Assembly (NCBI GenBank): GCA_963932905.1
Contig: CAWVRN010000001.1
Coordinates: 64,001 to 128,000 of the forward strand
Reading direction: 5' to 3'
Length of the DNA stretch: 64,000 bases
Source of the DNA: an uncultured Bdellovibrio sp.
GTDB lineage: Bacteria > Bdellovibrionota > Bdellovibrionia > Bdellovibrionales > Bdellovibrionaceae
Under the pieces are notes generated by a model. That model did no database searches. It saw nothing but the letters and a program-made list of their open reading frames with translations, and was not told the origin of the DNA. The translations under genes were made by a program, and so were the position numbers. This document shows, piece by piece, positions 12,786-59,152 of this stretch; position 1 is the first letter of the stretch; every line of letters starts with the position of its first letter.

Positions 12786-13946
12786 TCAAGAGTTAAAAGC
12801 TTTTTCCAAATCCTTGATAAGATCGTCAATATCTTCGATTCCAACGGATAAACGGATCAAAGAATCATCGATTCCTAGCTCTTTACGCTTGTCAGCCGGA
12901 ACACTTGCATGGGTCATGATTGCCGGGTGCTCGATTAGCGATTCAACCCCGCCTAAACTTTCAGCTAAAGCAAAAATCTCTACACTTTCTAGAAATTTTC
13001 TAGCCGCCGGAAGGCCACCTTTGATGAAAAACGTGATCATTCCACCAAATCCTAGCATTTGGCGCTTAGCCAAATCATGCTGAGGATGTGATTTTAATCC
13101 TGGGTAAATAACTCGATCTACTTTAGGGTGGGACGACAAGAAATCAGCGACTTTCAAAGCGTTCGCTTCGTGCGCTTTCATACGCAGTGGCAATGTTTTT
13201 AAACTTCTTAATGCCAAAAATGAATCAAAAGGGCCTTGAATGGTCCCCATGGAATTACTTAAAAAAGCCATGCGTTCTGCAAGATCTGTCTTGTTGGTTA
13301 CGGCAATACCGCCGACCATATCCGAGTGACCGCCGATATACTTCGTAGCTGAATGAACAACAATGTCAGCGCCCAAATCAAGGGGGCGTTGGAAGTATGG
13401 ACTCATAAATGTATTATCTACGACGACCAAAATTCCTTTTTGGTGTGCGATTTTAGCAATAGTTTCGATGTCGGCTAGTTTCAATGTAGGATTCGTTGGA
13501 GTTTCAAGCCAAACCATTTTAGTCGTTGGCGTGATTGCGGCTTCAAAATTTTTAACTTGAGTTAAATCAACATACGAAAAATTTAAACCCATCGGACGCA
13601 AAACTTTATCAAATAGACGGAATGTACCACCGTACATATCGTCCATCGCGATAACGTGATCTGCATTTTTCAACAAAGCTAAAATAGTCGTAGTCGCAGC
13701 GCAACCCGAAGCAAATGCAAACCCGTGAGTTCCATTTTCCAAAGCCGCCATACAATTTTCATACGCTTTACGAGTGGGATTGTGAGTACGCGAATACTCC
13801 CAACCCTTATGTACACCCGGAGACTCTTGTACGTAAGTCGATGTTAAATAGACAGGAGTCATAATCGCCCCTGTCGTTGGGTCAGGTTGTTGACCGGCAT
13901 GAATTGCCTTTGTTGCAAACTTTACTTTAGTGTCTTTGTTTTTCAT
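12786..13946 (-). CDS. Cystathionine gamma-lyase/synthase (Cys/Met PLP family)
   Basis: YSRTHNPTR, FASG, ETPTNP, VDNTF, HSATKY, AESLGGVESL. Confidence 0.94.
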   Translation of the reverse strand: MKNKDTKVKFATKAIHAGQQPDPTTGAIMTPVYLTSTYVQESPGVHKGWEYSRTHNPTRKAYENCMAALENGTHGFAFASGCAATTTILALLKNADHVIAMDDMYGGTFRLFDKVLRPMGLNFSYVDLTQVKNFEAAITPTTKMVWLETPTNPTLKLADIETIAKIAHQKGILVVVDNTFMSPYFQRPLDLGADIVVHSATKYIGGHSDMVGGIAVTNKTDLAERMAFLSNSMGTIQGPFDSFLALRSLKTLPLRMKAHEANALKVADFLSSHPKVDRVIYPGLKSHPQHDLAKRQMLGFGGMITFFIKGGLPAARKFLESVEIFALAESLGGVESLIEHPAIMTHASVPADKRKELGIDDSLIRLSVGIEDIDDLIKDLEKAFNS

Positions 13947-13984
13947 GTAATACCTCTGAGGTTTAGCTGACTCTAATTTTCCGG

Positions 13985-15034
13985 CTAAATTCCAATTTCT
14001 TTATAATACGTTTGGTAGTCTTCAATTTTATTAAAAACTTTCCCAATTTCTTCTGCCGTTAAGAAACCGTTGTCGATCATCCATTTGTTGTTAAAGGCTT
14101 TGCTTAAATAAGCTTTTCCGCTATCAGGCAACATCACTAGGAAACGTTTCTTTTCTTTGATTTTTTTCCCATATTTAATAGCGCCTACAAGGGCCATCGC
14201 ACTGGACGGACCAACGCACAGCGATTCTTTTTGGATTAATTCGCGAGTCATTAAGAATGATTCTTTGTCATTTACACGCACAAAATCATCCATGTATTGA
14301 AGTTCCACATTTTCAGGTAAGAAATCTTCCCCAACGCCTTCGACTTTATACGATGCTGGCGGGTCGATAACTTTTTTATGATAAAATAAGTCATAAAGGA
14401 TACTTCCCACAGGATCTGCGCATACTATTTTAATAGTTGGGTTTTTTTCTTTTAAATATCGACCTACACCCGAAATAGTGCCGCCCGTTCCGGCTCCGGC
14501 AACAAAAACATCAAGTTTGCCGTCCATTTGTTCCCAAATTTCAGGACCTGTGGATCTATAGTGGCGCTCACGATTGTCGATATTGTGATATTGATTCGCG
14601 TAAAAACAATTTGGCGTATTATCCGCGATCTTTTTTGCCACATTCACGTAATAACGGGGGTCTGTTGGCTCAACCCCAGTAGGCGTAATCAAAACTTTGG
14701 CACCAAATGCAGCTAAAATCGCGCGTTTTTCTTCGCTAATCTTATCTGGCATGATGAAAATACATTTATAACCTTTGCTGGCGGCTACAAATGCCAATCC
14801 CAAACCTGTATTTCCTGAAGTGGCCTCCACAATTGTGCCGCCGGGTTTTAATTCCCCACGTTTTTCAGCGCCTTCAATCAATGCGATAGCAATGCGATCT
14901 TTTACGCTGCCACCAGGATTGAAATATTCAAGTTTCACATAAAAATCGTGAATTGAATCTTTAGTTATAGAGTTAAGTTTAATGACCGGCGTATTGCCGA
15001 TGGTTTCAATAATAGAGTTTTTAATCTTAGACAT
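13985..15034 (-). CDS. Cystathionine beta-synthase / cysteine synthase family
   Basis: IGNTP, KLEYFNPGGSVKDR, EATSGNTGLGLA, GTGGT, YKVEGVG. Confidence 0.93.
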   Translation of the reverse strand: MSKIKNSIIETIGNTPVIKLNSITKDSIHDFYVKLEYFNPGGSVKDRIAIALIEGAEKRGELKPGGTIVEATSGNTGLGLAFVAASKGYKCIFIMPDKISEEKRAILAAFGAKVLITPTGVEPTDPRYYVNVAKKIADNTPNCFYANQYHNIDNRERHYRSTGPEIWEQMDGKLDVFVAGAGTGGTISGVGRYLKEKNPTIKIVCADPVGSILYDLFYHKKVIDPPASYKVEGVGEDFLPENVELQYMDDFVRVNDKESFLMTRELIQKESLCVGPSSAMALVGAIKYGKKIKEKKRFLVMLPDSGKAYLSKAFNNKWMIDNGFLTAEEIGKVFNKIEDYQTYYKEIGI

Positions 15035-15321: not shown

Positions 15322-15771
15322 TCATCTTAAACTTTCAATAAAATTTTGCAACAGAGGTCCAAAAATTACAGTCAAGAGCGCGGGAAACTGGAAAAAAAGG
15401 ACGGGAATCATCACTAAGTAGGGAAGTTTAATTAACTTTTCTTGGATCTCACGTTCGCACGCCTGATAAATTTCGTGTTCAAGTATGAGAATCTGATTAT
15501 AGATGGGTTCTTTCCTAATCCCTTTTTCTAGCAACTGGAGCACTTGTCGACGATAAATGGATTTCAATCCAACAACATGATCATGCGTAGGCATCTGACG
15601 TTCGATTAAAATGAACCACTGACGTGTGGCCTTAACAAACATATGATTAGCAAATGCGTGGCCATTGTGTGCGCTGAGATAGCGTTTAATTCCATCTTGG
15701 ATAGATTTTCCTTTTTCAATACTGCTTTTCACATGCAACAACAGCTCGAGTGGCGGTGCTAAATCTTCCAT
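15322..15771 (-). CDS. TadC/T2SS-F-like membrane protein (short)
   Basis: Probable start MEDLAPP; C-term KLP...MIPVLFFQFPALLTVIFGP resembles TadC; overlaps the upstream TadB-like gene. Confidence 0.6.
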   Translation of the reverse strand: MEDLAPPLELLLHVKSSIEKGKSIQDGIKRYLSAHNGHAFANHMFVKATRQWFILIERQMPTHDHVVGLKSIYRRQVLQLLEKGIRKEPIYNQILILEHEIYQACEREIQEKLIKLPYLVMIPVLFFQFPALLTVIFGPLLQNFIESLR

Positions 15772-16529
15772 TTGTGATTCCTTTGCAAATAAAACAAACC
15801 TAGGCAACCAAATGTGAACCAAATAGTCGCCGGGAGAAGATATTTTAGAAATAGCTTTGTCTCATAGTTGGAATACGAAAAAAAACTGACCGCGAAGAAA
15901 ACAAAAATCAGAAATCCGGCTTGCACATTCATATTTAGTGCCACTTGTCTCGACCTATGTCTCAAATCTAGTCGCAATTTTATATTTCGGCGCAGTTTTT
16001 GAAGTTGCTCGAGCGTTTTAACTTGTGATGTTTGTACATACGACAGTTCTTCGGCCAAGTTTTTCAGTGTTGGTGACACGATTTTCGAAACATTTTGTCC
16101 CAAATTCACCGCACGGACCAAATCATGGAACTGACGACGTCGCCAACCATTCATATCTTCCAAAGACTTGTCCATGGCTGATCTTAAGGCGATGCCGGCA
16201 GACACGCCGAGAATAATTTTGTCCAAAAAATTCAAACTTTCTTTCTGCATTTCAGTTTCAAATAAACTTCGTGCCAAGTGCGGCAAAATTCTCGCGATAA
16301 CAATCAGAAAAAAATAAAGAAACCACACGATGACCGGACTTTCGAATGCAAAATGAGTCACTGTTAAAACAATTGATACTAAAAAATACATGACGATGTT
16401 GAAAAAAGATGTGCTGAGACCGAAATTAAAAAAGAATTCGTGAATCTCATGCTTTAGAATTAAAAATCCGAGAAGCGAAATCGAAAATGAAACAACCATT
16501 GATAGCATCATGAAAAAAAATCGTATCAA
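15759..16529 (-). CDS. TadB/T2SS-F-like membrane protein
   Basis: N-terminal TMs; FLDKIILGVSAGIALRSA resembles the T2SSF domain; two C-terminal TMs. Confidence 0.6.
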   Translation of the reverse strand: MIRFFFMMLSMVVSFSISLLGFLILKHEIHEFFFNFGLSTSFFNIVMYFLVSIVLTVTHFAFESPVIVWFLYFFLIVIARILPHLARSLFETEMQKESLNFLDKIILGVSAGIALRSAMDKSLEDMNGWRRRQFHDLVRAVNLGQNVSKIVSPTLKNLAEELSYVQTSQVKTLEQLQKLRRNIKLRLDLRHRSRQVALNMNVQAGFLIFVFFAVSFFSYSNYETKLFLKYLLPATIWFTFGCLGLFYLQRNHKWKI

Positions 16530-16554
16530 TTTCTGTGCAAGTGATTTTTTTTTG

Positions 16555-16588
16555 TTGACGAACTTTGTCGCATTGTGAAGACTATAAG
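16555..16588 (+). promoter_or_regulatory. Candidate sigma70 promoter of the microprotein gene
   Basis: TTGACG -35 after a T-tract; -10 candidate AAGACT at 17 bp spacing. Confidence 0.5.
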
Positions 16589-16650
16589 TATAGTTTTAAG
16601 TTTGTAGTGAATTAACACTACATCATTTTAATAATCTCCAGGAGGAGCAC

Positions 16651-16725
16651 ATGGCAAAGAAGAAAGCTGCAAAAAAAGCTACTAAGAAAAAAGCTACTAA
16701 AAAGAAAGCTTCTAAAAAAAGATAG
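16651..16725 (+). CDS. 24-aa Lys/Ala-rich basic microprotein (histone H1-tail-like)
   Basis: AGGAGGAG RBS; MAKKKAAKKATKKKATKKKASKKR*; own terminator; not in the ORF track. Confidence 0.82.
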   Translation: MAKKKAAKKATKKKATKKKASKKR

Positions 16726-16745
16726 TTAGCTCCGGCTAATAATCT

Positions 16746-16777
16746 AAAAACCCTCAGGTAACTGAGGGTTTTTTTTT
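16746..16777 (+). terminator. Intrinsic terminator (probably bidirectional)
   Basis: AAAAACCCTCAG-gtaa-CTGAGGGTTTTTTTTT. Confidence 0.9.
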
Positions 16778-16803: not shown

Positions 16804-17445
16804 TTAGAAGTAATAGATCGATCCCGCGGAAGCCGCTGGTAGCAGGGTTCCTGAGCTTGTGCTGTAAAGAAAATTAAATTCTAAAAATAAAGAATTTCCA
16901 ATCCATTCTGTGTCTAGTTGATTGTACTGAATCCCCAAATTCGCTAACAGAAAATCGACTCCGATTTTACCATTTCGCAAATCGTTTTTTGATAAAACTT
17001 GATCCAAAATATACGAGTTACCACGCAGATCTGTGTTGTCTGAATTGTACCAACGAGAATATCCGACTGTAATATAGGGAGATACAAACTGACTCTCGAA
17101 ACTTGTTTTCCAGCCCGCAAAAAACGTATTAAACCCATATCCATTACCAAAACCGACCTGCGCCGCGTTTTGTGCGTCAAAATTTATGTCAGCCACACCG
17201 CCAATTTGTCCAAAAATTCCCGCAAGTCCGATTCCGGCACCTAATTTCCGGTGATCACGCATCTCCCAATTCGAATTATAAGCAGATTGATAGTAGTTTT
17301 TTGATTTATAAGTCGATGAAGACGATGTTGATGTCTCATTTTGTGTCTTCGTTGATCGATTCGGAGTGATTTCCACCGTCGAAATTTCTTGAGCTAGAGT
17401 TAATTGAGTAAAAATCAGCGAGAAAATTAGAATTAATGTCTTCAC
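16804..17445 (-). CDS. Putative outer-membrane beta-barrel protein
   Basis: Signal peptide; Gly/aromatic alternating strands; C-terminal YYF; TTG start in the ORF track. Confidence 0.65.
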   Translation of the reverse strand: MKTLILIFSLIFTQLTLAQEISTVEITPNRSTKTQNETSTSSSSTYKSKNYYQSAYNSNWEMRDHRKLGAGIGLAGIFGQIGGVADINFDAQNAAQVGFGNGYGFNTFFAGWKTSFESQFVSPYITVGYSRWYNSDNTDLRGNSYILDQVLSKNDLRNGKIGVDFLLANLGIQYNQLDTEWIGNSLFLEFNFLYSTSSGTLLPAASAGSIYYF

Positions 17446-17657: not shown

Positions 17658-18290
17658 TTACTTTGAACAACCAGCAACAGTGCTATTCATTGCATTCACT
17701 GCATTTTGAGAACTGTAGTAATTCGGATACAGTTTCTCTAAACAACCGATGCTGCGTTTCTTTAGCTTTATCGCACCCTCAACGGCTTTATCAGCAGCGT
17801 TCACCGCGTTCATTCCAGAATAGTATTTTTCATACATAAATTTGATTAAAGGCAATTTTCCGCGCATACTTTTTACAGATCCTGCCGCCGCCTTATCCAT
17901 TGCGTTTACCGAATTCATACCACTGTAGTATTTTTCGAATAGGAACTTCATAACTTCCAAATCGACCCCCTCTTTACATGCAGTAGAGGCTTTATCTGCA
18001 GCAGCAGAAGAAGACATTCCTGAATAGTACTTTTGATAAGAAAAATCATAGCAAGCTACAAAATCCGCGCTGTTAGTGCCGCCACCAACGATCGATGAAT
18101 CCGACGTTAATAGTTCAATGGCCTCTCGAAGTTTAATTTCTGCTTCGTCGATTTTCTCCTGAGACACTTCAGACGTTTGAGCTACACTTTTAACGGTGTT
18201 TGCCAATTTAATTACTGTGGTAACATCACCCTCAGCCGCAAACAAAACCTGACCGACCAAAAGGCCGGTAATTACTAATTTTTTTATCAT
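17658..18290 (-). CDS. Secreted hypothetical protein with four ~35-aa repeats
   Basis: RBS GGGAG before MIKKLV; signal peptide; repeated KYYSGM....A.DKA. Confidence 0.75.
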   Translation of the reverse strand: MIKKLVITGLLVGQVLFAAEGDVTTVIKLANTVKSVAQTSEVSQEKIDEAEIKLREAIELLTSDSSIVGGGTNSADFVACYDFSYQKYYSGMSSSAAADKASTACKEGVDLEVMKFLFEKYYSGMNSVNAMDKAAAGSVKSMRGKLPLIKFMYEKYYSGMNAVNAADKAVEGAIKLKKRSIGCLEKLYPNYYSSQNAVNAMNSTVAGCSK

Positions 18291-18396
18291 GGATACTCCC
18301 CATTTTTTGATTTGAGGAGGCAACATAAGACGAAAACAGGCAAACAACCACTGTCCGAAAATCAGACGGTAAATACTTACATTTTAAAGCTTTAAA

Positions 18397-19176
18397 CTAC
18401 AGTATTTTAGCTTTGATGCCTTCTTGCTGAAGGAATTTGCGAATTTGAGGACCATCGAGCGGCTCTAAACGGAATAGCAATTTATGAATCAGATCATAGC
18501 TTTCCTCTGCTTTTTTAGATCGTAAACCCGTCGTTAAATACGCTAAATCATCGCTAATTTTAACGAAGTTATCTAATAAACGTCCCATTTCTTTGTTTTT
18601 CGATGTCTTTTCAAGAAGAGTCAGAGTTTTATTGAAGTTACTAAGTAGTTTATCCATCTGAGAGATAATGCTTCCGACAGAACCTTCATTTTTATTCACT
18701 AGTTCGATCATTTTTCCGGCTAAGCCATAACTCTGAGAAATTAACTGATCGATCCGTGGTGGATCCTCGCCACGAACAACCCCGTTATGCTGAAGTTCTG
18801 GTTGATCCAGTCCTCCTGGGGAAACCTCTAAGAATTTTTCCCCGATGACACCCGCCAGATTGATAAAAAACTTAGAGTCTTGGCGAACGGTTTTCCAAGC
18901 TTTTTTATCCACAGAGATTTGTACCTGAAGTTTCACTTCTTCGCCCGAACCAGGCATTTTAAAATCAGGAACAAATGTAATGCTTTTAACTTTACCCACT
19001 TTTATACCCATTACACGTACGGGCGAACCTTGCTCGATACCACCGGCAAAATTGTACATTACATTTAAATCGTAGGAATCACTAAATGGTGAAACTAAAC
19101 CGACTAAATACGCAAAAACGAAAATCAAAACGATTGCGCAAACTGACAGTAACCCAACTTTAGTTTCAACCTTCAT
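18397..19176 (-). CDS. mlaD: MCE/MlaD-family protein
   Basis: N-terminal TM; GGIEQGSPVRVMGIKVGKV; GVIGEKFLEVSPG. Confidence 0.9.
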   Translation of the reverse strand: MKVETKVGLLSVCAIVLIFVFAYLVGLVSPFSDSYDLNVMYNFAGGIEQGSPVRVMGIKVGKVKSITFVPDFKMPGSGEEVKLQVQISVDKKAWKTVRQDSKFFINLAGVIGEKFLEVSPGGLDQPELQHNGVVRGEDPPRIDQLISQSYGLAGKMIELVNKNEGSVGSIISQMDKLLSNFNKTLTLLEKTSKNKEMGRLLDNFVKISDDLAYLTTGLRSKKAEESYDLIHKLLFRLEPLDGPQIRKFLQQEGIKAKIL

Positions 19177-19184
19177 CTATTCCC

Positions 19185-19985
19185 CTAGTAAAAATATGAA
19201 AACGTATATGACAGTATAAAATCAAGAACTATGATCGCCACTGAAGCAAAGACTACACTTTGGGTGGTTGCTCGACCCACACCATCGGCACCCGTTTTAC
19301 AATGGAAGCCGAAGTAACAACTGACCAATGGAATTACAAATCCAAAACAAAATGCTTTTATCGAAGCGAAAATAATATCCTGAAAATCCACGAAACGCCT
19401 CATGGCAGTGAGGAACATTCCCACCGGGTATCCAAGAAATCGATCCGCAACTATCATCGCCGCAAAAATACAGATCATATTTGCAATGATACTTAATAAT
19501 ACACAGCCAATAGTCGAAGCGATTAATCTTGGCACGATCAAAAATCGGACCGGATTTATTCCCAGCATTTTTAAAGCATCTATTTGTTCTGTTACTTTCA
19601 TCGAACCAATTTCAGCGGCCATACCGGCACCAATTCTTGAAGTTAAAAGCAATGCTGTCACAACGGCACCTAATTCTCTTAGTATCAGCAATGATGCGAA
19701 ACCAGGAACCATCGAATCATTTTGAATTACTATCTTCATATGAAATGATGACTCTAAAATCGTAACGATAGCCGCAAAGGTCACACAGAATGCAATGGTC
19801 CAAAGACTGCCATTGGCTACGAAATACAGCTGCTGAATGGTTTCTTTTTTTCTTGGTAAATGAGCAAAAAGTTGTACCAACGTTTCTACAACTAACTGAA
19901 TAAAGGAATTCAAACTTCTGTAAGTTACGATCACGAAGTGGCCAAAAATAGAAAAGGGGGTTTGAATCATCAATTTTGTCGTCAT
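19185..19985 (-). CDS. mlaE: MlaE-family ABC permease
   Basis: RELGAVVTALLLTSRIGAGMAAEIGSMKVTEQIDAL; GVGRATT. Confidence 0.92.
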   Translation of the reverse strand: MTTKLMIQTPFSIFGHFVIVTYRSLNSFIQLVVETLVQLFAHLPRKKETIQQLYFVANGSLWTIAFCVTFAAIVTILESSFHMKIVIQNDSMVPGFASLLILRELGAVVTALLLTSRIGAGMAAEIGSMKVTEQIDALKMLGINPVRFLIVPRLIASTIGCVLLSIIANMICIFAAMIVADRFLGYPVGMFLTAMRRFVDFQDIIFASIKAFCFGFVIPLVSCYFGFHCKTGADGVGRATTQSVVFASVAIIVLDFILSYTFSYFY

Positions 19986-20759
19986 TTATCCCACCGAAAA
20001 CCAGGATATCAATAGTTGTCCTAAAAAGCTGGTTCCCCAATCAAAAACGACGATAGTGACCATGGTCAAAACAGCCGTGCTGACAACGGAACGTCCAACA
20101 CCTTTAGCACCGCCCGTAGTGAAATAGCCCATATATGTACAAATAGTCGCCAGCACCAACGCATACGACATGCATTTAACAAGTCCACTTATCATAGACG
20201 GAATTCCTAAAATCGTTGGAATATGTCGAACGTATTCCTGAGGATTAATCCCGGCAAAAACGACGCCTAAAGTGGCGCCACCAACTACGGATAACATCAA
20301 TCCACCTGTTAATAAGAAAAAAGAAGAAATAATAATTCCCAGAAACCTAGGTAAAATGATTTCTTGAATGGGATCGGCTCCCAAACATCGGATGGCATCT
20401 ATTTGCTCTGTCACTTTCATCGTTCCCAGTTCCGCTGATGTAAATGCGCCTACTTTTCCTGACAGCATAAAGGCAATCAGCATCGGTCCAACTTCCCGGA
20501 TCGTCGCACTGGTGGCTAATCCCCCAAGATAGGCGGCTGCTCCGAATTCATTCACCTGCATTGCAAATTGGACAGTCATAATACCGCCAACAAAAAATCC
20601 GGCCATGGCTGTTGTTGGGAAACTTTGAAGGGTTACATGCCAAATTTGCTCCATCACCAATTCTAATCGGCAAGGACGCTTCCAAAGCGTTGTTAAAATA
20701 TCTTTCAAAAACATCATAATTTCGCCCAGACGGCTAAAAAACAAAACCCCTGTTTTCAT
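19986..20759 (-). CDS. mlaE: MlaE-family ABC permease (second paralog)
   Basis: REVGPMLIAFMLSGKVGA...ELGTMKVTEQIDAI; GAKGVG. Confidence 0.92.
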   Translation of the reverse strand: MKTGVLFFSRLGEIMMFLKDILTTLWKRPCRLELVMEQIWHVTLQSFPTTAMAGFFVGGIMTVQFAMQVNEFGAAAYLGGLATSATIREVGPMLIAFMLSGKVGAFTSAELGTMKVTEQIDAIRCLGADPIQEIILPRFLGIIISSFFLLTGGLMLSVVGGATLGVVFAGINPQEYVRHIPTILGIPSMISGLVKCMSYALVLATICTYMGYFTTGGAKGVGRSVVSTAVLTMVTIVVFDWGTSFLGQLLISWFSVG

Positions 20760-22222: not shown

Positions 22223-25062
22223 TGTTAAAAATTCTATTTTTACTATCGTTGACATTAACCTCCGTCGTATCCTTTGCGGCCGAGACTTATAATCGTGAGG
22301 AATGTGATAGTGTAATTGATGTAAAGAAGTATATCGTTGCCGGATCTTTAGATAATCCAACTGCCGGTGGAAAAACGTATAGTTTTGATAGAATTGTGGG
22401 TGCTTTAGAAAACGAATTACTCAGCGGTCAGCCGCCCCGACCGAAAAATTTTGAATGTCTAAGCATGCTTCACCAAAAAGCTCATGAGGACGCCACAGAA
22501 TATTGGGTGGGCCGTTTGGCACGATCAACGTGCGCGGGTGATAACGATAAAGTTCCTAGTATCAAACCACCTGGTTGTGACGATGATTTGTGGAAAAAAT
22601 TCCACGCCAGCAAAAGACAGATCGATAGTGCGGCAAAAAGCATTACCAAACTAACCACAGAATGCGTTGAAAGAAATGGTGTTAAATCGTGTGAATCAAT
22701 CAATGCTTTGAAAAGCCTTCAAGATTTTACACAAGAGCTGGGTGAAAACAACAGTGATAAGTGTTGTAATACCAACGACGGCGCGGCTTACAAAGTTTTG
22801 CGCGGTTTCTACACGGTCGAATTTGGCGATATGAACGATGCCGACCTTCAAAAGGAATGTTATAAAAGAACACGTCCCGGCAACAAAGTGGATGGGTTCT
22901 GGTCCGGAGTCGGTGGTTGTGTGAAAAACGCGGCTTTAGGAATTGCCGAAGCCGTTATGAAATGGTTTAAAACAGCCAAAGCACTTTGGGAAGTCGGAAC
23001 TAGTTCTGAAACTTGGAGAATGCTACGCGATGTTTCGAAACTAAAAGACGCCGTAGTAAATTTATTAAAAGCAATGATGGACCAAATGGCGGATCAGTTC
23101 AACGCTTCGACAAGCTGCTTTACTGGTCAGTACAAATTAGATCAGGCATGTAAATTAGCATCTAGTTTTGCAATAGATTTCTTAGTCGGCGGCGGAATTG
23201 GAAAAGGCGTCGGATTCTTAGCTCAGCTGATGAAAGCCGGAGTCAAAGATATGGCTGGTATCGCGAAAAGCATGCTTGCGTCCAACCCCAAAGTGGCTCA
23301 GCTCAGCGCCAAGCTCAAAAAGATTACCGGCAAGGGAGCAAATACAACCACATCGGCAGCGACTCGTGCCGCTGCTAAAAAATCAGCTTCGCATTTAGCT
23401 CAAGCTTTAAAACCCGTAGCTGATTTCAGTAAATCAGTTGCCGCTCGTGTTAAAAAATTAAGAGAAAAGGAAGGTATTAAACCAATGAAGGTGTCGGATC
23501 GATTAGAACCACAATTTGGTCCAAATGCTTCCGTCACAGTTGCGGTTTCTGACAACGCTGCTTCAACTGGTGCTGCAGCCGCCGCACAAACTTCTTCAAG
23601 AGCCGCATCTAATGCGACATCAGCAGCCAGTTCATCGGCAAATTCTAATGCGGTTAAACTGACTGCAAAATCCATCGGAAAAGCAGAAAAAGACATACGC
23701 GCCTTTAGAAACTCTGAGTACGAGGCAATGTACGCCACACGCGGTACTCGCGCGGTTGATGCTCCAGAAAGCCTTTTTGTAAAACCCTCTAGATTAAAAG
23801 GCAAATCGCCAAGCGAGCAAATGCGAATTATCGAAGGCGCCGCCAAATCTCGTCGTGCTCAAGTGGAAAGAATGCTAAATGCCACTGATTTAAAGGGCAA
23901 ACCTGTGCTAACTCAGGCACAAGCGCGTGAAATTTTGAACAACATGGATGATGCTGTTTCAAGAATTCGTTCACGTTTGGGACAGCCAGATACAAGTGTG
24001 GCCTCAACACGCGCCGGAAGTCGCGCTGTATCTACTGGTGCTACGCCAGTCGATTTAACAGCTGCGACAGCGAACGCAATCGACACATCCATACCGACAG
24101 CGGTGCCGGCAACCACGGCCAGTTCCTCAGGAACAACCGCGGTCATTGGTACGTCAGCCACATCTGCGTCAACAAGTTTTACCAATACAGCCATTTCCTT
24201 TATCGATAGCTTACCAAAAGTAGATATCCAAGCTATTGCAAGTTCGGCAACAAAAATGAACAAAACTCTACAACAACAGTTAGATAATTTTCAGTCATTT
24301 GAAGCCCGAGCACGTGCAAATGCCGCGGCTGCGAATCCCTCTGCGACAGCACGCTCCTCTGTGTGGGCAAACCAAAGCAATCGAGCCATTTCTAAAGATG
24401 CGCTTCGCCGGCATAGGGAAATTGAGGAACTTTATAAAAAAGGTATTATTAACGATGAGCAAGCTCATGCTATGCACGACATCGTTCGTGTAACCGAAAA
24501 CTCGGCTACAGGTACAGCGACTCGTTACAATACTCAGTATATCGTGACTCCAAATACGAACCCGTCGACCTTCGTTTTAAGAGAGCGAAACGCACCGATA
24601 ACTGCCGCGAGTGCCGCGAGCGCAGCTGGTTTAGTGTTAAAACGTTCGACCTACTCGGATGGTGCATCTCTCACGACTAACAAACAAGTTCAAGCGACAT
24701 CTGATGCTGCCAACGGACAACGCTACAGTGAAGATACAGTTAAAGCCTCCGCCGTGGTGGTACAAAAATTAACAGAGAAGCCAACGTCCATTAGTAACGA
24801 ATTTTCCAAACTAAAAACAGAGACGGAAATTTTAGACCGCGCAGATGATCTGCGAGTGAAAGTTAAAACACTTCAGAACAATTTGCCCGCAGATGCTGAT
24901 GCCGATGCAAAAGATGCTCTCGAAGAGTTAGTAAATGAAATTAATAGGGAACGAGACCGTGCCCTTGCCAGAATCAAACCTAAAGGTACAACGACACCTG
25001 CACCCGCATCAGATGATCCCGCAATTAAATTTGGAATTCCTATAGATCCTGATTCCGAGTAG
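22222..25062 (+). CDS. Large secreted hypothetical protein: Cys-rich N-terminus, Ala/Ser/Thr-rich C-terminus
   Basis: 946-aa ORF; signal peptide ending SFA; many Cys in the first ~310 aa. Confidence 0.8.
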   Translation: MLKILFLLSLTLTSVVSFAAETYNREECDSVIDVKKYIVAGSLDNPTAGGKTYSFDRIVGALENELLSGQPPRPKNFECLSMLHQKAHEDATEYWVGRLARSTCAGDNDKVPSIKPPGCDDDLWKKFHASKRQIDSAAKSITKLTTECVERNGVKSCESINALKSLQDFTQELGENNSDKCCNTNDGAAYKVLRGFYTVEFGDMNDADLQKECYKRTRPGNKVDGFWSGVGGCVKNAALGIAEAVMKWFKTAKALWEVGTSSETWRMLRDVSKLKDAVVNLLKAMMDQMADQFNASTSCFTGQYKLDQACKLASSFAIDFLVGGGIGKGVGFLAQLMKAGVKDMAGIAKSMLASNPKVAQLSAKLKKITGKGANTTTSAATRAAAKKSASHLAQALKPVADFSKSVAARVKKLREKEGIKPMKVSDRLEPQFGPNASVTVAVSDNAASTGAAAAAQTSSRAASNATSAASSSANSNAVKLTAKSIGKAEKDIRAFRNSEYEAMYATRGTRAVDAPESLFVKPSRLKGKSPSEQMRIIEGAAKSRRAQVERMLNATDLKGKPVLTQAQAREILNNMDDAVSRIRSRLGQPDTSVASTRAGSRAVSTGATPVDLTAATANAIDTSIPTAVPATTASSSGTTAVIGTSATSASTSFTNTAISFIDSLPKVDIQAIASSATKMNKTLQQQLDNFQSFEARARANAAAANPSATARSSVWANQSNRAISKDALRRHREIEELYKKGIINDEQAHAMHDIVRVTENSATGTATRYNTQYIVTPNTNPSTFVLRERNAPITAASAASAAGLVLKRSTYSDGASLTTNKQVQATSDAANGQRYSEDTVKASAVVVQKLTEKPTSISNEFSKLKTETEILDRADDLRVKVKTLQNNLPADADADAKDALEELVNEINRERDRALARIKPKGTTTPAPASDDPAIKFGIPIDPDSE

Positions 25063-57862: not shown

Positions 57863-59152
57863 ATGCGATTTTTTATTAGTGATTTAAAGAATCATATTGG
57901 TGAGCAAGTAGAGTTAAAAGGCTGGGTTTATCAAGCCCGCTCTTCTGGAAAAGTTAAATTCTTAGAATTACGTGATGGAACTGGAATTGTTCCGTGCGTA
58001 TTTTTCAAAGGCGAAGCCGAAGACGCCGCGATGGAACTATTTGATAAAGCGACTCAAGAGAGTTCCGTCAAAATTACTGGAACTGTAAAAAAACATCCCA
58101 AACATGAAAATGTTTTTGAAATTGCAGCAAAAACATTAGAAATCATTGCCACTTCTGAAAATTATCCTATTTCCCCAAAAGATCATGGAACCGATTTCTT
58201 AATGGAAAATCGTCATTTGTGGCTGCGCTCAAAACGTCAACACGCTATCATGCGCATTCGTCATGAAATCATCTCAGCTATTCGTGATTTCTTTGATGGC
58301 CGTGGTTTCACGTTGACGGACGCTCCGATCTTTACACCCAGCGCGTGTGAAGGAACTTCAAATTTATTTGAAACTAAATATTTTGACGAAAAGATGTATT
58401 TATCACAATCCGGTCAACTTTATATGGAAGCAACCGCTGCGGCTTTGGGAAAAGTATACTGCTTCGGTCCTACATTCCGTGCTGAAAAATCTAAAACTCG
58501 TCGTCACTTGATCGAGTTCTGGATGGTTGAGCCTGAAGTTGCGTTCAACGATATGTACGACAACATGGAATTGGCTGAGCAATTTGTTGAATACATCGTA
58601 CAACGCACAATCAAAAATCGCGCAGAAGAATTCCGTGTGATCGAACGTGACATGAGCAAGCTTGAAGTGATCAAGGGACCATTCCCACGCTTGCACTACA
58701 AAGAAGCGGCAGAAATTATCAAAAAAGAAAATCCAGAATTCATCATCGGTGATGACTTCGGTGCGCCTGATGAAACCATCGTTTCTTCTAAATTTGATAA
58801 ACCTGTATTCGTACATCACTACCCACAAGCAATTAAGGCCTTCTACATGAAGGAAGATCCAAAAGAACCAGGGTATGCAATGGGTTGCGACTTGCTAGCC
58901 ACAGAAGGCTACGGCGAAATTATCGGTGGTGGTCAGCGCGAAGAAAGCATCCAAAAATTATTAGCCAAAATCGCAGAACACAAATTAGATGAAAAAGATT
59001 TCCAATGGTATTTGGATCTTCGTCGTTTTGGTTCATTCCCGCACAGCGGATTCGGTTTAGGTATCGAGCGTACAGTGACTTGGATTTGCGGATTGCCTCA
59101 CGTACGTGAAACTATTCCGTTCCCTCGTTTGTATGGTCGCAGCTATCCATAA
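57863..59152 (+). CDS. asnS: Asparagine-tRNA ligase
   Basis: OB fold [42 protein letters not shown]. Confidence 0.95.

Follow-up and report, generated by a model that had tools for sequence, protein, structure and literature searches.

A conserved polylysine micro-gene of Bdellovibrio-like bacteria and its candidate role in nucleic acid binding

Can a short run of lysine codons between two larger genes be a gene in its own right, and if so, what could a peptide with next to nothing but lysine and alanine do in the cell? The question is raised by a locus within the window, i.e., the whole 64,000-nt stretch of DNA from an uncultured Bdellovibrio sp. that was analysed. The original prediction described at this place an unannotated, stand-alone expression unit for a 24-aa peptide and listed an ORF, a TTGACG −35 box, the ribosome binding site AGGAGGAG, 15-bp repeats, a cUNCGg-type hairpin, and a strong terminator, all of which are present where it placed them.

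The peptide, MAKKKAAKKATKKKATKKKASKKR, is encoded on the plus strand at 16651–16725 (24 codons and the stop). It consists of 13 Lys, 6 Ala, 2 Thr, 1 Ser, 1 Arg, and 1 Met, has a pI of 11.6 and a charge of about +14, and contains no acidic, aromatic, or large hydrophobic residues. Without the methionine, the mature peptide would comprise 23 aa and have an average mass of 2556.19 Da, compared to 2687.39 Da with the methionine retained. Tandem Repeats Finder reports a 15-nt period in 3.4 copies at 16671–16720, which equals a repeat of five codons.

The signals around the ORF follow one another closely on the plus strand. A putative UP-like element, TGCAAGTGA with a T9 run (16536–16554), is assigned an UP role from resemblance and leads into the −35 box TTGACG (16555–16560), the first five letters of which are kept in 43 of the 46 units examined. 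The spacer carries a GTC (16567–16569) that belongs to the consensus of 32 distinct promoters and is a candidate operator half, and the −10 box AAGACT (16578–16583), 17 nt 3′ of the −35 box, is likewise conserved in these 32 promoters. The 5′-UTR is predicted to fold into a hairpin (TGTAGTG-AATTAA-CACTACA, 16603–16622), after which come an A/U-rich stretch and the Shine-Dalgarno sequence AGGAGGAG (16640–16647), 3 nt upstream of the ATG. Downstream of the stop codon, a small hairpin of the cUCCGg type (TTAGC-UCCG-GCTAA, 16726–16739) is predicted and is followed by a predicted intrinsic terminator (16746–16777) made of A5, a 12-bp stem (16746–16773), and T9. The 201-nt unit as a whole has a more stable fold than all of 200 shuffled versions (z = −4.98). 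The two matches from Rfam both lie under the threshold (E 0.72 and 0.76) and are taken as chance; the first of these, to a leader family, scores 23 bits against a cut-off of 55, sits on the terminator, and was rejected.

The upstream gene (15759–16529, minus strand) is divergent and has a weak T2SSF match (E 1.9e-4) under the Pfam cut-off, and the downstream gene (16804–17445, minus strand) is convergent, so the unit is monocistronic. Neighbour orientation and terminator thus agree with the prediction of a stand-alone unit divergent from tad-like genes. The terminator is probably bidirectional, judging from the A-run and T-run at its flanks, and would then be common to the convergent gene that ends at 16804. 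A leader peptide or attenuator was considered and rejected, since the next gene is convergent and the terminator ends the unit.

The most sceptical reading is that the ORF arose by chance from an A-rich repeat and gives rise to no peptide. The DNA of the locus is indeed A-rich and of low complexity, and alternative-frame ORFs are open across it. Against this stand the conservation of the ORF, its synteny, the geometry of Shine-Dalgarno sequence and ATG, and the codon and A-run patterns, all described below, which leave a chance ORF hardly credible. Within the 4.55-Mb genome, the ORF is also the sole one of Lys/Ala type with at least 12 aa, a K+R fraction of at least 0.4, and a full AGGAGG.

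Conservation was examined in 41 genomes, namely the genome itself and 40 relatives. A DNA search found matches in every one, a tally that means little because Lys/Ala repeats are common in the group, and the loci were therefore read directly. Direct reading places the unit in 30 of the 41 genomes; a contig end makes the matter undecidable in two, one genome has a fusion to a SWIB domain only, and the unit was not found in the fetched regions of eight others. Of a first 20 loci, 17 have a stand-alone ORF that begins with MAKK and is preceded by a Shine-Dalgarno sequence; two of the remaining three code for long-repeat proteins, and the third lies at a contig end. Such an ORF is also present in 11 of another 16 regions, in 15 of the 18 in a later batch, and in 19 of 20 loci within one genus. 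All orthologues read have AGGAGG or GGAGG 4–9 nt upstream of the ATG. Conservation of ORF and ribosome binding site in relatives, named beforehand as a test of the prediction, is thus what these 30 genomes display. Identical peptides occur in Bdellovibrionales and Pseudobdellovibrionaceae records.

Within the order, the ORF varies in length between 21 and 120 aa through the number of its repeats: many families have 21–30 aa, a genus of 26 genomes has 28–55 aa, and a few lineages reach 54–120 aa. The peptide had been called minimal; the 24-aa form is real, but it is the short end of this series rather than a type of its own.

The surroundings of the gene are conserved as well. Across 15 loci from several genera and families, a homologue of a 166-aa gene adjoins the ORF in all 15, the T2SSF-like gene in 14, the convergent 213-aa gene in 13, and MlaD in 12, while the neighbour proteins themselves have diverged to 21–82% identity. 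Synteny beside the tad-like pair, which had been proposed as a check, accordingly extends to the T2SSF-like homologue next to the ORF in 14 of 15 loci. This arrangement, conserved across the order, is also the one point in favour of a peptide that is exported and, as a polycation, displaces divalent cations from the LPS of the prey envelope. Such a role appears highly improbable: the peptide has neither a signal peptide nor a hydrophobic segment, the tad-like genes are divergently transcribed, and similar micro-genes are found in non-predatory groups (Vicinamibacterales, Planctomycetota, and Omnitrophota).

Of 401 genomes sampled from the phylum, 94 match a strict promoter-to-start pattern (TTGAC-N56-86-GGAG-N4-9-ATGGCNAARAAR); for the reversed pattern that served as control, three matches were seen. 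Inside the order of the window, the rates are 37/53 in family f1, 26/26 in one genus, 9/9 in f2, 16/27 in f6, and 3/3 in f10; all are minimum values, since the pattern misses units whose leader is longer, such as that at locus L147. Outside the order, the rates are low (10/100 in f22, 2/57 in f25, and 0/20 in f16). Ten of these outside loci were read and comprise six long Lys-rich proteins of 199–404 aa, one histone-fold protein with a Lys/Ala tail, one other, and two that look like ribosomal protein L11, an identity we presume from the N-terminal sequence.

The distribution of sequence identity along the locus narrows down what is held constant. In the nearest species, the block 16440–16740 is 98–100% identical, compared to about 65–95% in the flanks. 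In distant members of the genus, the ribosome binding site and the first 40 nt of the ORF (16640–16689) alone stay at 98–100%; the rest of the ORF falls to 78–84%, the leader to 42–48%, and the flanks to 40–70%. Differences within the CDS at genus level lie mostly at third codon positions, with one Ser/Ala replacement. Among same-length groups, the number of variable sites is 105 at the third codon position and 57 and 64 at the other two, a weak skew because shifts of the repeat register confound the comparison.

Codon choice is uniform. Among 35 distinct CDSs, 275 of 302 alanine codons are GCT or GCA, and 156 of 169 threonine codons are ACT or ACA. A set of 38 ORFs for ribosomal proteins, elongation factors, and RNA polymerase (EF-Tu and RpoBC among them) is enriched for GCT, ACT, TCT, and AGA relative to 1883 long ORFs of the same genome. 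The window ORF uses these four codons along with two GCA, the latter being about neutral between the gene sets. Runs of adenine are capped: the longest measures 6–8 nt in 35 of 35 CDSs, and none of 2000 sets with synonymously shuffled Lys codons stays at 8 or below throughout, a significance that is overstated because the sequences are related rather than independent. Such a cap is consistent with a translated lysine tract in which poly(A) slippage is avoided.

The untranslated parts vary in sequence and keep their form. Other genus members have the 5′-UTR hairpin at the same place with compensatory changes (ATCGTG/CACGAT and GTCGCG/CGCGAC). Among 40 distinct orthologous 3′ flanks, a terminator is scored in 36, and in 34 an additional small hairpin, with covarying stems of unrelated sequence, follows the stop codon ahead of the terminator. 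Together with codon choice and the A-run cap, the compensatory changes in the hairpins suggest that the mRNA is translated efficiently.

ARN and CA motifs are linked to Hfq, and the main functional product could instead be the RNA, with its A-rich (ARN)n coding region and CAA-rich leader serving as a sponge or target for a protein such as Hfq and translation being incidental. The coding sequence is nearly all AAR and GCN triplets, many orthologue leaders contain AACAACAACAA, and nucleotide identity is very high, as an RNA product would have it. Every orthologue, however, keeps the ATG, the Shine-Dalgarno sequence with its spacing, and the open frame while the leader is replaced; third-position changes dominate within the genus, the A-runs are capped as in a translated tract, and no Rfam family is matched. 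An RNA product is very unlikely on these grounds. The comparative evidence instead supports, with high confidence, a genuine, old, and vertically inherited protein-coding gene of Bdellovibrio-like bacteria.

The consensus of the promoter over 32 distinct sequences is TTTTTTG-TTGACG-N6-GTC-...-AAgACT, with TTTTTTG immediately 5′ of TTGACG and a −10 consensus of (A/T)A(A/G)AC/AT at 17-nt spacing; the element ATGCAAG recurs across genera. A promoter scan tool had chosen a different pair, TTGTCG-18-TATAGT, which is not conserved and was rejected in favour of TTGACG-N17-AAGACT, the pair that the 32 promoters share. An inverted repeat, TGAC-N7-GTC(A/G), spans the −35 box and the spacer, is a perfect TGAC-N7-GTCA in several families, and may be an operator. 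The promoter motif of the window has a single occurrence in the genome, at the polylysine gene, and no regulon is inferable because of this.

The original prediction had connected the peptide to the very compact nucleoids of Bdellovibrio attack-phase cells. According to the portion of PMC3627812 that was available, 92 of 140 attack-phase promoters of B. bacteriovorus have a FliA-type consensus, TTAAG-N16-CCGATA. Compared with this published consensus, the promoter of the window is sigma-70-like and unlike the FliA type, so a specific link to attack-phase compaction is unsupported, and that part of the prediction is not borne out. A role in attack-phase nucleoid compaction is speculative.

Contigs from three metatranscriptome libraries of three studies (four runs examined of 23 listed) cover 16418–16670 with one or two mismatches. 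With a depth of 2–6, these contigs begin 5′ of the predicted promoter and break inside the repeat; they cannot prove transcription, strand, or transcript ends, DNA carry-over is possible, and stretches of the window that lack such cover are uninformative. A word share of 0.53 in several RNA runs was rejected as a sign of transcripts, being explained by the ultraconserved block 16440–16740. High expression is inferred from the strength of the signals and from codon choice. Among the eight attack-phase sRNAs tabulated for B. bacteriovorus HD100 (PMC3627812, Table 2, within the portion available), none is obviously the polylysine gene, a comparison that carries little weight.

None of 28 pure Lys/Ala proteins of 24–199 aa is found in a collection of 15 billion proteins (0/10, 0/10, and 0/8); the two histones used as controls, one of 64 aa from this genome and one of 74 aa with a tail, are both in it. 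Pfam and NCBIfam return nothing up to E = 1–10 for the 24-aa peptide or for relatives of 36, 37, 34, and 117 aa, and a PDB sequence search has no match for the 24-aa or the 55-aa form. A protein search with a natural orthologue of 54 aa gives 8000 candidates, none of which passes E ≤ 0.001, an outcome probably due to composition correction. The ESM Atlas contains one 55-aa orthologue, which implies that longer forms are sometimes called while the 24-aa form falls under the usual limits of gene callers; its nearest clusters are labelled "hypothetical protein", and the first cluster with any Pfam family has HC2 on 17% of its members, a lead only.

Mass spectrometry is affected in a similar manner. 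A full tryptic digest of the peptide yields fragments of at most three residues, which makes it invisible to tryptic proteomics. Its absence from protein collections and this fragment size agree with the earlier claim that gene callers and tryptic proteomics had both missed it. Gene callers, the bias filters of HMM searches, and protein collections all lose polylysine genes of this kind, which amounts to a blind spot of standard methods, and proteomic studies based on trypsin and annotation could not have detected the peptide. Among the literature searched, with subscription journals largely outside, there is no description of the gene or of a free polylysine peptide in Bdellovibrio.

What, then, would such a peptide do? 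As judged from its composition, electrostatic binding to a polyanion appears to be the only plausible chemistry for a chain with no independent fold, and the peptide probably binds DNA or RNA by charge. The proposed course runs as follows: (i) a sigma-70-type promoter, possibly gated by an operator, would drive a transcript of about 190 nt; (ii) this transcript would combine an unstructured or hairpin-capped leader, a near-perfect ribosome binding site, the 24-codon ORF, and a two-hairpin 3′ end; (iii) the peptide, lacking residues able to form a fold, would act purely as a polycation; (iv) it would bind the phosphate backbone of nucleic acids, most likely chromosomal DNA, without sequence preference; and (v) once bound, it would neutralise charge and promote compaction or bridging, as described for the C-terminal tail of histone H1 and for chlamydial Hc2. 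Repeat number, and hence total charge, would be the variable on which evolution acts, giving the range of 21–120 aa across the order. A nucleoid-binding polycation is the best explanation of the locus, with an even chance of being the right one.

Part of the case for the nucleoid comes from larger proteins. A Lys/Ala N-terminal module with the same MAKKKA(A/T)KK start also occurs on bacterial histone-fold proteins, one of which matches PDB 9qt0 (a DUF1931 protein) with E 7.7e-20 and 8cmp with E 1.6e-3. The same module is fused to SWIB domains (E 1e-28 to 1e-32), and this genome encodes one such SWIB protein. Start and composition are shared with the peptide; in these proteins the module is joined to a folded domain, and here it stands alone. 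The fusions favour nucleoid binding, although modules of such low complexity may be convergent rather than homologous.

By its composition, the peptide would attach to rRNA, mRNA, or polyphosphate no less readily than to DNA.

The main competitor of the nucleoid is the ribosome. rRNA is the most abundant polyanion in the cell, and the peptide might be mainly RNA- or ribosome-bound, as a polycationic ribosome accessory or an RNA chaperone that shields rRNA charge. In expression signals and codon choice, its gene is similar to genes of the translation apparatus, and a sigma-70-like promoter with a T-run is expected of growth-phase genes. Thx, bS22, and bL37 are tiny basic ribosomal proteins of some lineages, with diverse sequences and fixed lengths; they are similar to the peptide in size and basic charge, while the peptide is a repeat of variable length. 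None of these small ribosomal proteins is recovered as an NCBIfam match, and neither the 24-aa nor the 55-aa form matches any ribosomal protein in the PDB. A length that ranges freely from 21 to 120 aa is ill-suited to a fixed pocket in the ribosome, and the module fusions involve histone-fold and SWIB proteins, none of them ribosomal. A mainly RNA- or ribosome-bound peptide is therefore rather unlikely. In favour of the nucleoid-binding polycation, repeat number varies freely, as it does in Hc2 and AlgP, and this is easier to reconcile with non-specific binding by charge than with a fixed site in a structure.

Comparison with known DNA-binding polycations places the peptide among them by mode rather than by descent. 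Hc2 (HctB, PF07382) is similar in that it is built from lysine-rich pentamer repeats of variable number and has no folded domain; it differs in size (165–237 aa against 24 aa) and in that the unit of the peptide is KKKAT, with no Arg or Pro. Repeat number, and hence length, of Hc2 differs between strains, as stated in the part of PMC2848022 that was available. The PF07382 cut-off is not reached, with no Pfam or NCBIfam match for the peptide or its longer relatives, and neither is there a Pfam match to Hc1 (HctA, PF07432); no sequence relationship to Hc1, Hc2, or any family is detectable in these searches.

The tail of linker histone H1 resembles the peptide in Lys/Ala/Thr/Ser composition, in predicted disorder, and presumably in the neutralisation of DNA charge. 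The peptide, on the other hand, has neither the winged-helix globular domain nor S/TPKK motifs and is free rather than a tail. Homology to H1 cannot be judged on low-complexity sequence.

In concept, the closest precedent for a nucleoid protein of this size appears to be ScvA and Hq1 of Coxiella burnetii, compared here by description alone. The portion of PMC4766238 available describes them as small basic DNA-binding proteins that are enriched in the compact, non-replicating form of a biphasic life cycle.

AlgP/PhaF proteins, as portrayed in the available part of PMC9239181, are Lys/Ala polycations of KPAA repeats in variable number that bind DNA in vitro. AlgP nevertheless has a 124-aa N-terminal helical domain and a proline in each repeat and tethers polyphosphate granules (PMC9239181, same part), whereas the peptide has no such domain and no proline. 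The mode of action of the peptide is likened to H1, Hc2, AlgP, and ScvA, yet membership in a family by sequence is not found, and on this account the polylysine gene is best placed, on sequence grounds, as a putative tail-only micro-peptide with its own conserved expression unit.

AlgP also provides the main argument for a target other than nucleic acid, i.e., polyphosphate granules or acidic protein surfaces, or for a peptide that drives charge-based condensates: as a histone H1-like repeat protein, it localises to polyphosphate granules and spaces them (PMC9239181, in the part available). Another protein of the genome combines a Lys-rich half with an acidic tail. No ppk or other polyphosphate genes lie near the locus, however, and the peptide has no anchoring domain comparable to the N-terminal domain of AlgP, which together make this alternative quite unlikely.

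For the nucleoid-binding polycation, the histone of Bdellovibrio is the natural point of reference. In bottom-up MS, Bd0055 exceeds all other nucleoid proteins in abundance, and most bacterial singlet histones have no tails (Hocher et al. 2023, PMC10627809, available part). The available text of a 2025 preprint lists the nucleoid proteins of B. bacteriovorus as SMC, two HU, Fis, IHF, two Dps, Bd0055, and Bd3044, with no such peptide among them. The same portion of the preprint states that the essential histone fails to compact E. coli DNA and that "additional factors" are maybe needed, and treats the basis of the extreme compaction of the B. bacteriovorus nucleoid as unresolved.

The genome analysed here encodes a 64-aa, Bd0055-type histone (P0004) that is tail-less. 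It is matched over its full length at 72–81% identity in five of five genomes of the order or class tried, and the N-terminus is tail-less in all three relatives read of the five matched. In another order, one histone has a Lys/Ala tail (L165) and another does not (L217). Across the few loci read, the tail state of the histones follows no clean pattern of the kind that a "tail in trans" would suggest. In its widest form, the nucleoid reading would make free oligolysine peptides overlooked and abundant chromatin components: the missing compaction factor of Bdellovibrio, a "histone tail supplied in trans" beside a tail-less histone, and a widespread unannotated class of nucleoid proteins in Bdellovibrionota, Acidobacteriota, Planctomycetota, and Omnitrophota. 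This extension is doubtful. The order-wide, unannotated gene for a +14 polycation with strong expression signals is nonetheless a concrete and cheaply testable candidate for a factor in tight chromosome packing.

Similar genes are found well beyond the phylum. A search of one genome per species with the pattern GGAGG-N4-7-ATG GCN AAR AAR AAR GCN NNN AAR AAR gives at least 119 matches. Among the matches listed, 52 are complete, pure Lys-rich ORFs of 20–60 aa, 27 of them with a simple terminator; the others are shorter than 20 aa (18), longer than 60 aa (8), run off the locus (15), or form the Lys-rich N-termini of other proteins (26). The matches listed come from Bdellovibrionota, Vicinamibacterales and other Acidobacteriota, Planctomycetota, Omnitrophota, Nitrospirota, and others. 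These cross-phylum polylysine micro-genes may be homologous or convergent, their sequences being too low in complexity to tell, and more than one phylum harbours free-standing Lys-rich ORFs of the same build as the one in the window.

The small gene lies within a 300-nt block (window 16440–16740) that also contains both promoters and the 5′ end of the divergent tad-like gene (its first ~25 codons). Identity across this block is 98–100% in the three nearest species, and the coding DNA that flanks it diverges by 10–20%. One metagenome contig has a single difference from the window in the block and 47 differences in 16197–16398. Either constraint or recent exchange may account for the high identity of the block.

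The promoter contains an inverted repeat, TGAC-N7-GTC(A/G), at 16556–16569, overlapping the -35 box and the spacer. The repeat is maintained across families, both at individual loci of relatives (L150, L151, L152, and L154) and in the matches to the strict promoter-plus-start pattern, and looks like a putative operator for a dimeric regulator. The leader of most genera outside the window's genus carries AACAACAACAA a short way 5′ of CCTAGGAGG (loci L011, L012, L014, and L170–L189), a putative CA-rich unstructured enhancer or possibly the site of an RNA-binding protein; the window's genus has a hairpin and an A/U-rich stretch in its place. Downstream, an A-run precedes and a T-run follows the stem of the terminator (16746–16777), which is located ~30 nt past the convergent gene's stop codon (16804) and is probably common to the two genes. 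Genes in the neighbourhood (12786–15034 and 17658–20759) encode two enzymes, one a PLP enzyme of Cys/Met metabolism and one of the PALP type, together with MlaD and two MlaE permeases; no connection between any of them and the small gene is evident.

Lys/Ala-rich sequence recurs in the same genome, where at least five further proteins have Lys/Ala tails: contigs C12 (~104790–105330, +), C6 (~58495–59010, +), C4 (~179530, −), C1 (~460140, −), and C24 (~23886–24050, +). Among them are a SWIB-domain protein, one protein whose N-terminal half is Lys-rich and whose C-terminus is acidic, and another of ~50 aa that bears its Lys/Ala tail at the C-terminus. The genome also encodes a tail-less, 64-aa Bd0055-type histone (L142:1498–1692, on C1) and a 162-aa protein in which a Cys-rich, zinc-ribbon-like N-terminus is fused to a histone fold (L141:1231–1719, on C2), with a 164-aa counterpart in another order (L216).

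Bacterial singlet histones are described as mostly without tails (PMC10627809). Among the loci listed, bacterial histone-fold proteins with an N-terminal MAKKKAAKK... Lys/Ala tail of 15–25 residues occur in Planctomycetota (Phycisphaerae, Pirellulales, and kin; L028, L037, L065, L094, L101, L131, and L132) and in Bacteriovoracaceae, Halobacteriovoraceae, and family f22 (L069, L107, and L165).

Among the matches listed, the Lys/Ala micro-ORFs of Planctomycetota include four with terminal cysteine clusters (...KKKCCCR, ...MRCGCTCK, ...MGKSCCCK, and ...KRSCKKC; L044, L056, L066, and L113). These endings suggest that a peptide which is in all other respects a pure polycation binds metal or is lipidated. 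A 34–35-aa Lys-rich subfamily in Vicinamibacterales/Acidobacteriota (L038, L053, L054, and L075) has a common non-basic C-terminal motif, ...KKKKKPVGD(V/I)F(G/N), which hints at a specific docking end. ORFs of 10–12 codons (such as MAKKKAKKKK), preceded by a GGAGG site, are found in Binatia, Rokubacteria, Methylomirabilia, ‘ANGP1’, and further groups (L027, L034, L039, L062, L071, L098, L120, L121, L122, L130, and L138). Since a simple terminator follows only 3 of the 18 listed ORFs shorter than 20 aa, some of these may not be free genes but encode leader peptides.
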